A DNA stretch of 62,657 nt, filler included, from Sluysia triapertura (taxonomy: Eukaryota), in the NCBI GenBank assembly GCA_046118255.1. It is 5 parts of 5 records of this genome, joined end to end, with 100 filler letters (N's around TTAATTAATTAA, not from the genome) between each part and the next. Parts side by side here need not be neighbours in the genome. Positions count along the whole stretch, not along the records: positions 38,911 to 51,668 come from JBJNIA010083699.1; 4 more parts are not named here. One strand, written 5' to 3'. Of the stretch, positions 47,701-50,695 are shown piece by piece; the stretch's first letter is position 1; each line of letters begins with the position of its first letter. A program made the translations under genes and the position numbers. Below the pieces are notes generated by a model. That model saw only the letters and a program-made list of their open reading frames with translations, searched no databases and had not been told where the DNA came from.

Positions 47701-50695
47701 TCCTATATTTATGTATAGCGTCTCCCATAACTTTTGTGAGGTGAGATAAATGGTAAGCAAGTCCTTTTAAGAGAGGCTTCATATATTAATGAAGCTACGG
47801 CTCCTGTGTCTATCAAAGCCGTAACTTCTCTTCCATTTATTCTTATATCAACCATTGATCTTTTTGCTCCATTGAAATTATTATTAGCTCAAATCACATA
47901 CACTACGTTTTGAGGGGGTGATATCGGAGAAGTAGAATATAATGGTTCCTTGGTTCCATCTTTTCCATCTACTGTGTTTTTGATTTTTCTATTTTTTGTG
48001 ATTTTGTATTTCTATATTCTCCACTTGTTGTCTTTCTTTCCTTAAGGTATTTATTTGCGAATTCGCATGATGATGTAGCAAATATTTTTCTAAAAATGGA
48101 AAACAACCAATTATTAACCTCCAAGTGAATCCTGAAATCTTATAAATCCCAACTACATACTTGGGAAATTATTATGCAGATACTGTTTAAACCTGAAAAA
48201 GCCTGAATAGGAAACTACCCAAAATGTGTCTTAGTGTATTTTATGCAGCCTTCTTAAAGTGATCCGGTCCTAACAATAATATAAAAGTTCCAATTCTGGT
48301 GCCAAATTTGTTAAATGTCTTTTCTTTTTTACTTAAATATGCAAATGTATAATAATGGGTTTCACGGTTTACTCTAGATGCAACGTTTGTCAATAAGAAT
48401 CAAAAGAAAAATATTACTTTCTCATGAGGATCTCTGCTATAATTAATACTTAATCATCAAAGAATTCTTTCAATCTAAATGTATACTCAATTATATTTTT
48501 AATATTCCTCTATAAGTTTATGTAAATTTATTTATTTCAAACTTTGTGGAAATTAAATTATTAACTCAGTAAAATTAATCAACAATTATTCAATCTTTTT
48601 AATTTTATCGGGCAGTTGTTAAAATTCTTTCTTTATTCAGTGCTGAACTATGTACTTTAATATTGAGTCTTCACCTTTCTACTTTCATTTCGCTATAAAT
48701 TTATCGGATTCAAATCTAGCAATAAAATCAACATCATCTATCTCATGATTGCAGCTTATCGCTATTACCTACCTTAGACTCTTCAATTTAATATTACTCT
48801 GATTAATTCCTCAAGCGCAAAATATTTAAAACGGGCTCGCGTACTGTCCACGTCTTATAGCAGGTGTGTTTGTTACCTTAACTCTTGCTTTAATCAAGAG
48901 TCAAAAGTGAAAATACGCAAATACAATAATTAATATTTTTAGAAAAGGTTTATGCATAGAAGTGAATGAAACACAAAAAAGCAAAATACAAATAAAATAA
49001 TTTAAATCAGAGACTTTGAATCTTAATAAATTTTAATAAGTTAAAAAAAGTATCTGTTGAAAATAATCAATAAATACAAGTAATATTAGAAAATTCGAAA
49101 ACTTAGATCACAAAATCCCGCAAAGAAGACTGTCTTTTATAATTAGTTTAATACTTCGTTTTTTGTATAATTTATTTATATTATTTGTTCAACAATATTA
49201 TATTATTTGTCTCTAATTCAATTCCGTTGTTGTCTTTTGACACACTGCCTTTGAAAACTTGTCATAATTATACGGTATTTTTGTACAAATTCACTGAGTA
49301 TTTATAGTCAGTTTATTTACCCAATCATTTTCTGTGAAATATTCTTCTTGAAATCAAAATTATTACACTTTCTTACGACTAATATTTTATATTTACAGCT
49401 TATTATCATTATTAATAATTTATAAATTATTATTTGAAGTTATTATCTCAATCCTAATACTGTATCATCACATTTGTAGGGAATTCATCACACAAAATTC
49501 AATAATGATAATTTAACAAAATGAATAATAATAATTATTAATAACACCAAACTATTTTTTTACTATAAAAGTATCGAGATTAGACATGTACTTTATCATA
49601 AATTCAATATGCAGAATTCAAAAGGAGAACGTCAATTGTTGTACCACTAAGGTTTTTAATAACTTTATTTATACCTTTTCTTTATTATACTTAAAGTTAA
49701 TATAATATTATACTTTGTTTCTGTTGTAAACTCGTTAATTGTTACAGGCATGAAGCCTATTTCTTTAGTAATTTTAAAATTAATACTTAATTCGTTTTTG
49801 ATTGTAAAGTTTTAATTAAATCGTTTAAAATAAATAAAATTGAATTAAGTTTAAGTAATTTTACGCCCTCACACAACATTCATTTATCTTGCCACACCGA
49901 AGGGTACGTCTACATCAATACTTTACGCACTACCAATTCTTCATTCTCAATTTTGATTCAATATCTACAGTAGCTCTTTTGTAATATGTTATCTTTACTT
50001 GGTCAATGTTACATTTATAATGTTCTCAATGTATATGCTAGCTATCTATTTGGTTCTAAAGTTGTTTTCTGGAAAACACTTTTAAAGGCTTTCTCCATAG
50101 GGTAACATTTTTTTCTAATTTGCTCCACACTTGATGAGCTATTCCATTTAAGAACATCGATATCTTATTAGCCAAATTTTTTAAAATTTATTTCTGTGAC
50201 AGTTTTGGCGGCTACCATCATAGATTTTAATAAATTTTAATAAACTTTCATAATGAAAATCAATTATAATTATAATTATAATAACAATAATAATAATAAT
50301 ATTAAATAAATAAAAATGTCTAATACGTTCCAGATTTAATACGATATCCTAGCCAGTCTTATGTGTTATTGTACATTTTATGAGGTAGTAATAGTCACAT
50401 TTAGCAGTCTATATTAATAGTTATTGCTGCACTAATCTCAAATCAATAATTCAAACTCTAAACTATTTTACTTATTTTCTAGGTAGAGCCTAATGGTAAG
50501 GCGGTGGGCATTGATCACATTGATGATTTAGTTTCAAAATCGATATCAAATTGTCAAAAATGTCCTGTTTCTAAGCGTCTTCTTGACAATGAAACGATCA
50601 AATTAGTTACTGGTGATGGACGTAAAGGTTTTGCTGAGATGAGTCCATATGATGGTATACATGTTGGTGCTGGAGCTGAAACTGTTCCATTAGAA
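41761..50695 (+). CDS. PCMT1: Protein-L-isoaspartate O-methyltransferase; exons 41761-41806, 41841-41977, 42045-42149, 50483-50695 (first and last exons not located)
   Basis: [65 protein letters not shown]; in-frame GT-AG junctions. Confidence 0.95.
44190..44936 (-). pseudogene. Homolog of accessory ORF Y
   Basis: Same relative position after the ORF X homolog; short colinear matches to 8310-9009. Confidence 0.35.
45030..45815 (-). pseudogene. Homolog of accessory ORF X
   Basis: [71 protein letters not shown], all colinear with 6347-7180. Confidence 0.8.
46660..47638 (-). mobile_element. Family C solo element/LTR (979 bp), 5-bp TSD CGTAT, inserted in the protease of copy 2
   Basis: TGTAATG...CACTATA termini; CGTAT at 46655-59 and 47639-43; removal restores LRVIRNY; internal GGCCTTAAGCC hairpins. 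Confidence 0.8.

Follow-up and report, generated by a model that had tools for sequence, protein, structure and literature searches.

Within the window, by which we mean the whole stretch of 62,657 nt of Sluysia triapertura DNA that was analysed, one retroelement has left two decayed copies: copy A lies on the plus strand (~15600-23600), copy B on the minus strand (~48290-46100). They are approximately 74% identical at the DNA level, and in both the tail of a gB-type (Monjiviricetes) env leads into a Ty3/gypsy protease. Four identical 100-nt spacers, each made of N runs flanking a 12-nt all-frame stop linker, occupy 15017-15116, 26791-26890, 38811-38910 and 51669-51768. As five pieces were joined to make this stretch, the two copies are not necessarily adjacent in the genome. 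The window is AT-rich (GC 19-32% per 2 kb) and open frames are few. No LTR-like pair was found around copy A or copy B, both of which are truncated and flanked by N-gaps. The parts of the two copies are as follows.

Copy A
15618..15815 (+): gag remnant; tblastn to P0020 residues 35-104 (Retrotrans_gag region), 31%, E 4e-4
16468..16833 (+): env ectodomain, middle; PF24664 (Monjiviricetes_fusion) E 1.4e-19; 42-58% to intact relatives
19360..19791 (+): env C-terminal ectodomain and membrane anchor, beyond a 2.5 kb insertion; PF24664 E 3.2e-18
20793..20885 (+): env tail, resuming past a 1 kb insertion; 43% to L001 residues 1810-1839, E 3.5e-4
20872..21009 (+): env-to-protease linker; frame change within 20872-20885
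21010..21330 (+): aspartic protease, degenerate catalytic motif, one stop; PF13975 E 2.3e-8
21362..23055 (+): PR-RT spacer, reverse transcriptase and RNase H, with several frame changes and stops; PF00078 E 1.5e-23, PF17917 E 8.9e-18
23204..23506 (+): integrase zinc-binding domain and start of the core; PF17921 E 1.2e-5

Copy B
48030..48285 (-): env membrane-anchor region and tail, with stops and two frame changes; tblastn 33-41% to intact polyproteins
47862..48029 (-): env-to-protease linker; frame change within 48011-47992; protease-frame stop near 47890
47740..47861 (-): retroviral-type aspartic protease, N-terminal part; PF13975 E 1.2e-5, PF00077 E 3.3e-5
46660..47640 (-): unrelated ~1 kb insertion splitting the protease; a gap in the A-B tblastx, and contigs skip ~1,010 nt
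46095..46645 (-): remainder of the protease and PR-RT spacer, decayed

Element structure and surrounding sequence

In copy A, PR, RT, RH and IN follow each other with the integrase last, which is the order of Ty3/gypsy elements (Metaviridae). Env lies between gag and pol (gag remnant at 15618, env at 16468-20885, PR at 21010), the gag match being weak (E 4e-4) and without a significant Pfam match of its own. Two PF24664 matches, with E values of 1.4e-19 and 3.2e-18, place this Env in the gB, or chuvirus-like, class. The interval between gag and env is mostly missing, env domain I is absent from the window, and env is split by two insertions of ~2.5 kb and ~1 kb. Pol has accumulated 9 frame changes, five of them +1, and 9-10 stops in 2,533 nt, and similarity to relatives fades out past ~23580. 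Copy B has undergone 2 frame changes within 175 nt of env, and no RT was found past its PR-RT spacer.

The 2.5 kb insertion in the env of copy A (16850-19350) carries a piece of an SP-RING/MIZ zinc finger at 17218-17460 (PF02891, E 6e-19) and, at 18247-19320, coding-like frames without a Pfam match; it may be a captured piece of a host gene or a portion of another element. The 1 kb insertion in the env tail (19800-20790) is 19% GC and 65% alike, over 414 nt, to 32066-32461, and because of this likeness it is probably a small dispersed repeat. A GC-richer repeat of 50-80 nt is present four times, in both orientations (10689-10756, 11533-11600, 15405-15482 and 15847-15930), and one of its copies breaks into the region of the gag remnant. 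Elsewhere in the window, a 125-aa hydrophobic frame at 40788-41165 (-) has a weak tetraspanin match (E 0.004) and is perhaps a host exon. The regions 6254-7180 (+) and 45300-45900 (-) share a coding pattern of a membrane segment plus a proline-rich part and a weak mutual tblastx match. The 308-aa frame of this pair has no Pfam match, and the two regions are possibly pieces of another repeated element.

The env-protease junction

The original prediction was that the Env tail is translationally joined to the protease, as the remains of one ancestral polyprotein decayed independently in each copy or through a recoding site. The peptides on which it rested lie where it had placed them, at 48285-47740 on the minus strand in copy B and at 20793-21330 on the plus strand in copy A. 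From the IGCFPF peptide to the protease N-terminus we counted ~63 codons in A and ~77 in B, where the prediction had given ~60-75. IGCFPF and the catalytic position of the protease lie 259 nt apart in A and 301 nt apart in B, each distance being +1 modulo 3; the protease frame is therefore +1 relative to the env frame in both copies. The shift was expected at different places, and this is what the stops delimit: 20872-20885 in A and 48011-47992 in B. Relative to the shared anchor, these windows cover codons 24-28 and 34-40, respectively, and do not overlap.

The linker had also been thought conserved as protein between the copies. A dN/dS estimate, proposed at that time as a check, showed this to hold at both ends: 0.17 for the 24 codons of the env tail (Fisher p 0.003), 0.25 for the 42 codons covering the pre-PR part and the start of PR (p 0.0006), and 0.13 for the 14 pre-PR codons by themselves (p 0.011). 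Both ends of the linker are therefore under protein constraint. Its middle is not conserved; there the two copies differ in length by 42 nt and give no clean alignment.

Sequencing reads were used to examine the offset. A contig of run X1, a run that possibly comes from the window's own sample, agrees letter for letter with 47595-48127 (0 differences, 0 gaps). Since it reproduces the copy B junction exactly, an assembly slip in the window is ruled out as the source of the copy B offset. A third copy was recovered from the same run (record 5). Its linker span is 208 letters versus 220 in copy B, with an env-to-PR distance of ~289 nt; being 12 nt shorter, it has the same offset as B. Summed depth in X1 was 71,375 at the env tail, 4,973 at the protease start and 51 in the linker, compared with ~20 for contigs identical to the window. 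These depths show that there are many relatives with unlike linkers, and are not a copy number. A search of sequencing runs listed one run containing the sequence and no RNA run, a result without bearing on expression.

How surprising is a shared offset? At the observed break rate, the chance of a net +1 in any one linker is ~0.26-0.28. Under independent decay, both window copies would be at +1 with a probability of ~0.07, and at some shared non-zero offset with ~0.13. For three copies out of three these values become ~0.02 and ~0.035, respectively, the copies being an unplanned sample and maybe not independent. Over the 8 codons that separate the two frame-change windows, the best pairing was between the protease frame of A and the env frame of B (score 27, versus 10 and 15 for the same-frame pairings), which is what two separate breaks in a single uninterrupted frame would produce; by itself this alignment is weak (Fisher p 0.44), and one out-of-frame pairing scored 24.

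Alternatively, the subfamily could have acquired a programmed ribosomal frameshift of +1 (or -2) in the tail of Env. Translation would then end after Gag-Env for most ribosomes and proceed to Gag-Env-Pol for a minority, with less Pol relative to Env as the result. Ty1 and Ty3 use +1 shifts. The linker lengths of 259, 301 and ~289 nt differ by multiples of three, and some env relatives end inside the linker. In copy A, the env frame has a T-TTA-AAA heptamer immediately ahead of the frame-change window, and the env frame of copy B ends in AAA-TAG. However, the heptamer is of the -1 type, leads into a closed frame and is absent from B, and the AAA-TAG is likewise unshared. Neither window contains a Ty1, Ty3, antizyme or prfB motif, and a single conserved shift site with a known motif was not found in A and B. 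Downstream folding is weak (-2.2 and -8.0 kcal/mol), L001 and 20 relatives whose linkers were compared are in frame, and the copies are heavily decayed, record 5 itself having 17 gap letters relative to copy B over the protease piece. Since the windows are disjoint and have no motif in common, and frame breaks are frequent in these copies, recoding is poorly supported, and we regard it as unlikely; it keeps this small probability because 3/3 copies measured share the offset. If true, the frameshift would set the dose of Pol at the env-pol border rather than at the gag-pol border, giving mostly Gag-Env and little membrane-anchored Gag-Env-Pol. We encountered no report of Pol dosing by frameshift at an env-pol border, in a literature search that was not specific for it.

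A single inherited lesion would account for the three equal offsets without recoding: a defective lineage would have lost the env-pol frame once and been copied in trans by intact helpers, later indels blurring the site. Yet the frame-change windows of A and B differ. Moreover, between these copies, ~74% identical in DNA, the protease start is constrained (dN/dS 0.25), and pol was therefore still needed after their split. This scenario appears quite improbable.

Intact relatives

The RT of copy A was searched against proteins of 1,118-3,560 aa, a choice of length that favours long fusions. Among the 120 matches listed, 13 were at least 53% identical. Six of these 13, together with P0097 (47%), are stop-free proteins of 2,627-3,181 aa in which PF24664 stands directly before PR-RT-RH-IN; the remaining 7, among the matches listed, are stored as proteins without env. 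A further relative, L001, was found in DNA without gene calling. It consists of a single ORF of 3,703 codons encoding Gag, Env, two proteases, RT, RH and IN, and its RT is 57.5% identical to that of copy A. The same ORF holds two zinc (CCHC) knuckles and a weak ubiquitin/SUMO-like domain (PF11976/PF00240). Overall, the closest intact relatives are stop-free Gag-Env-PR-RT-RH-IN polyproteins of 2,600-3,700 aa.

The env tail was searched without a length limit and gave 63 matches. Of 21 near-clade matches reaching the anchor, 13 extend without a change of frame as far as a protease motif 85-345 residues on, and 8 end 6-60 residues past the anchor, either by a stop or by the end of a contig. In addition, P0189 ends 22 residues past it. 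More distant stand-alone envs, 20-32% identical to the tail, end 16-126 residues past the anchor without a protease. A word-index search with the env tail found nothing, and P0189 was the only contribution of the alignment search. P0123 and P0138 were discarded as repeat-driven false matches, no relative was found in the viral contigs searched, and the Atlas had no usable match for P0124.

An RT tree was built from 48 of 122 rows, namely all those with at least 50% identity, all env-bearing ones and 30 random others. Copy A, on a long branch, groups with all 9 env-bearing polyproteins of the tree in a clade of 17 rows, which is starred (100/97). The nearest relatives of the window's elements are 42-58% identical, and no intact member of their own subfamily is among them.

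These relatives also bear on a separate origin of Pol. Foamy viruses make Pol from a separate (spliced) message, and their Env ends at its own stop. Something similar, with a spliced or internally initiated message for Pol, would fit the env frames that stop within the linker in both copies, as well as the seven close RT relatives stored without env among the matches listed. But the env stops are not at one shared place, no polypyrimidine-plus-YAG acceptor was found at the junction, the open protease frame has no methionine ahead of the protease itself, and the relatives are fused. A conserved env stop with a separate pol start or acceptor, which had been named as the pattern that would overturn the fusion, was thus not found in the two copies, and a separate message seems scarcely probable.

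That an env and a pol of separate elements came together by chance is ruled out, the junction being common to two copies that are 74% alike and to the relatives.

We therefore favour, with a probability of about 0.85, the reading that the window holds decayed copies of Ty3/gypsy gag-env-pol elements whose intact relatives encode one Gag-Env-PR-RT-RH-IN polyprotein, the +1 offset being most likely separate mutational damage in each copy. Of the two origins first proposed, the ancestral polyprotein decayed independently is the one retained, and it extends to Gag, as the intact relatives are in one frame. The elements are dead copies of an already known layout, to which they add two dead members.

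Several features of the relatives were observed in passing. Many contain two to five aspartic-protease-like domains per polyprotein, some of them past the integrase (P0129, P0029, P0037, P0039, P0126, P0128, P0145, P0028 and L001). In most long relatives the same ORF continues past the integrase with a signal-like segment, a domain of 120-300 residues and a membrane anchor (10009-11205 in L001). This module, carried by L001, P0020, P0026, P0033, P0037, P0039, P0097 and P0187, has no Pfam match; it could be a second, receptor-binding surface protein partnering the gB-type fusogen. P0025, a member of the RT clade, has at residues 45-300 a small signal-plus-anchor module, not a gB env, directly before the protease, so that its Pol would remain membrane-anchored even without a fusogen. 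Downstream of the L001 polyprotein, at 11375-13473, are two accessory ORFs, for a charged protein of 222 aa without a Pfam match and a protein of 462 aa with a weak RNase T-type exonuclease match (PF00929, E 0.001).

Predicted working of the intact form and known systems

The IGCFPF peptide had been taken for the last hydrophobic segment of Env. It is present, but according to the hydropathy of intact relatives it is probably not the membrane anchor: its segment reaches a Kyte-Doolittle value of 1.6 in 1/19 of them and usually has two charges, whereas a segment ~35 residues upstream is at or above 1.6 in 18/19. A role for IGCFPF as a second membrane pass, which would place the protease in the lumen, was rejected on the same hydropathy (1/19). 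Intact relatives have a signal-like hydrophobic segment before the ectodomain and one strong segment after it (18/19). Hydropathy alone thus suggests that Gag is cytosolic, that Env lies in the lumen, and that the linker and Pol are cytosolic again. The further signal-and-anchor pair past the integrase in 8/9 long env-bearing relatives is consistent with a Pol that stays in the cytosol, bounded by a membrane pass on either side. Folding the L001 junction from its sequence alone gave a poor model (pLDDT 44), which was used solely for the helical anchor region.

In the intact form, an internal signal sequence after Gag would send the gB-type ectodomain into the ER lumen, and the host signal peptidase would cut there, parting Gag from Env. 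The single membrane anchor would bring the chain back to the cytosol, where the linker, protease, RT, RNase H and integrase would begin as the cytoplasmic tail of Env, 1:1 with it. By forming trimers, Env would raise the local concentration of the protease and bring about its dimerisation, and the protease would free Pol inside the budding particle.

Retroviral late domains serve budding, and comparable motifs of the PSAP/PTAP, LYPxnL and PPxY-like types in the linker would recruit ESCRT. In the linkers of 20 intact relatives, counts that include the near-duplicates P0037/P0039 and P0125/P0187, LYPxnL-like motifs were found in 11/20 (shuffle mean 0.53; 0 of 2,000 shuffles reach this), P[ST]AP in 3/20 (shuffle mean 0.04) and PPxY in 3/20 (shuffle mean 0.36; 10 of 2,000 reach this). 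Such motifs are present too in some stand-alone env tails, and the canonical ones are absent from the linkers of copies A and B. A loose phi-YP pattern, seen in 16/20 linkers, was set aside, having been widened after the data were seen. By analogy with the retroviral late domains, the linker motifs may act in budding. The literature search found no paper linking late domains to an env-pol linker.

The membrane-anchored Pol precursor, thought unusual when first proposed, would follow from the fusion; the layout is unusual and has precedents, in passages of PMC6431247 and PMC13524379. Those of PMC6431247 describe planarian Burro elements (GYPSM1, giant gypsy-like LTR retrotransposons) whose env, akin to mononegavirus fusion proteins, lies between gag and pol and shares their frame. 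They call it the first such case, and note decayed copies with stops and frameshifts in another planarian. The relatives examined here resemble Burro both in this env and in the single gag-env-pol polyprotein; copies A and B are interrupted at the junction and at other places. Burro-like extras among the relatives are the CCHC knuckles and weak ubiquitin/SUMO-like domain of L001 and ankyrin repeats in P0027 and P0043. The giant size, LTRs, and MATH, BCL2 and BIR domains of Burro were not seen in the window, whose gag-env interval is mostly missing. Burro, compared here by its description, exceeds 30 kb and has LTRs; the window copies are truncated. It has a dUTPase-like PR-RT spacer; in the window, 21374-21598 is homologous to the L001 spacer (31%, E 2e-8), with no Pfam match.

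The HSV/gB-type errantiviruses of Platyhelminthes, Bryozoa and Nematoda, as the passages of PMC13524379 present them, have the same GAG-ENV-POL order and the same class of env as the elements studied here. In its main text the words 'frameshift' and 'fused' have 0 occurrences, and the passages on these elements do not state whether the three regions form one ORF. Of six motifs in the Schmidtea C1a env rows given there, relatives have 0-6 (P0029 and P0129 4/6) and stand-alone envs none (0 of 7); the 6/6 of L001 is partly circular, as the motifs were picked by eye from the paper's rows against L001. Given these env motifs in the relatives and the low GC of the window, the host is likely a flatworm. 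Because env domain I is lacking from the window, its elements are not directly assignable to the flatworm C1a type. Sacco et al. 2022 reportedly described nematode endogenous retroviruses (NERV) with a continuous gag-env-pro-pol ORF and an RNA-virus-type glycoprotein, said to be a monophyletic RT clade confined to chromadorean nematodes. Compared by this description, NERV share the continuous ORF with the relatives studied here, which differ in carrying flatworm-type env motifs. Canonical errantiviruses and BEL/Pao elements with a chuvirus-like glycoprotein have, in the gB-type cases, the same Pfam env family. In those elements, env is a separate ORF with a free tail (placed after pol in errantiviruses), whereas in the intact relatives studied here it is fused before the protease.

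With such a fusion, Pol would reach the particle on the tail of the envelope protein instead of on Gag, at 1:1 with Env, and the linker would be where the budding-signal-like motifs and the protease cut sit.
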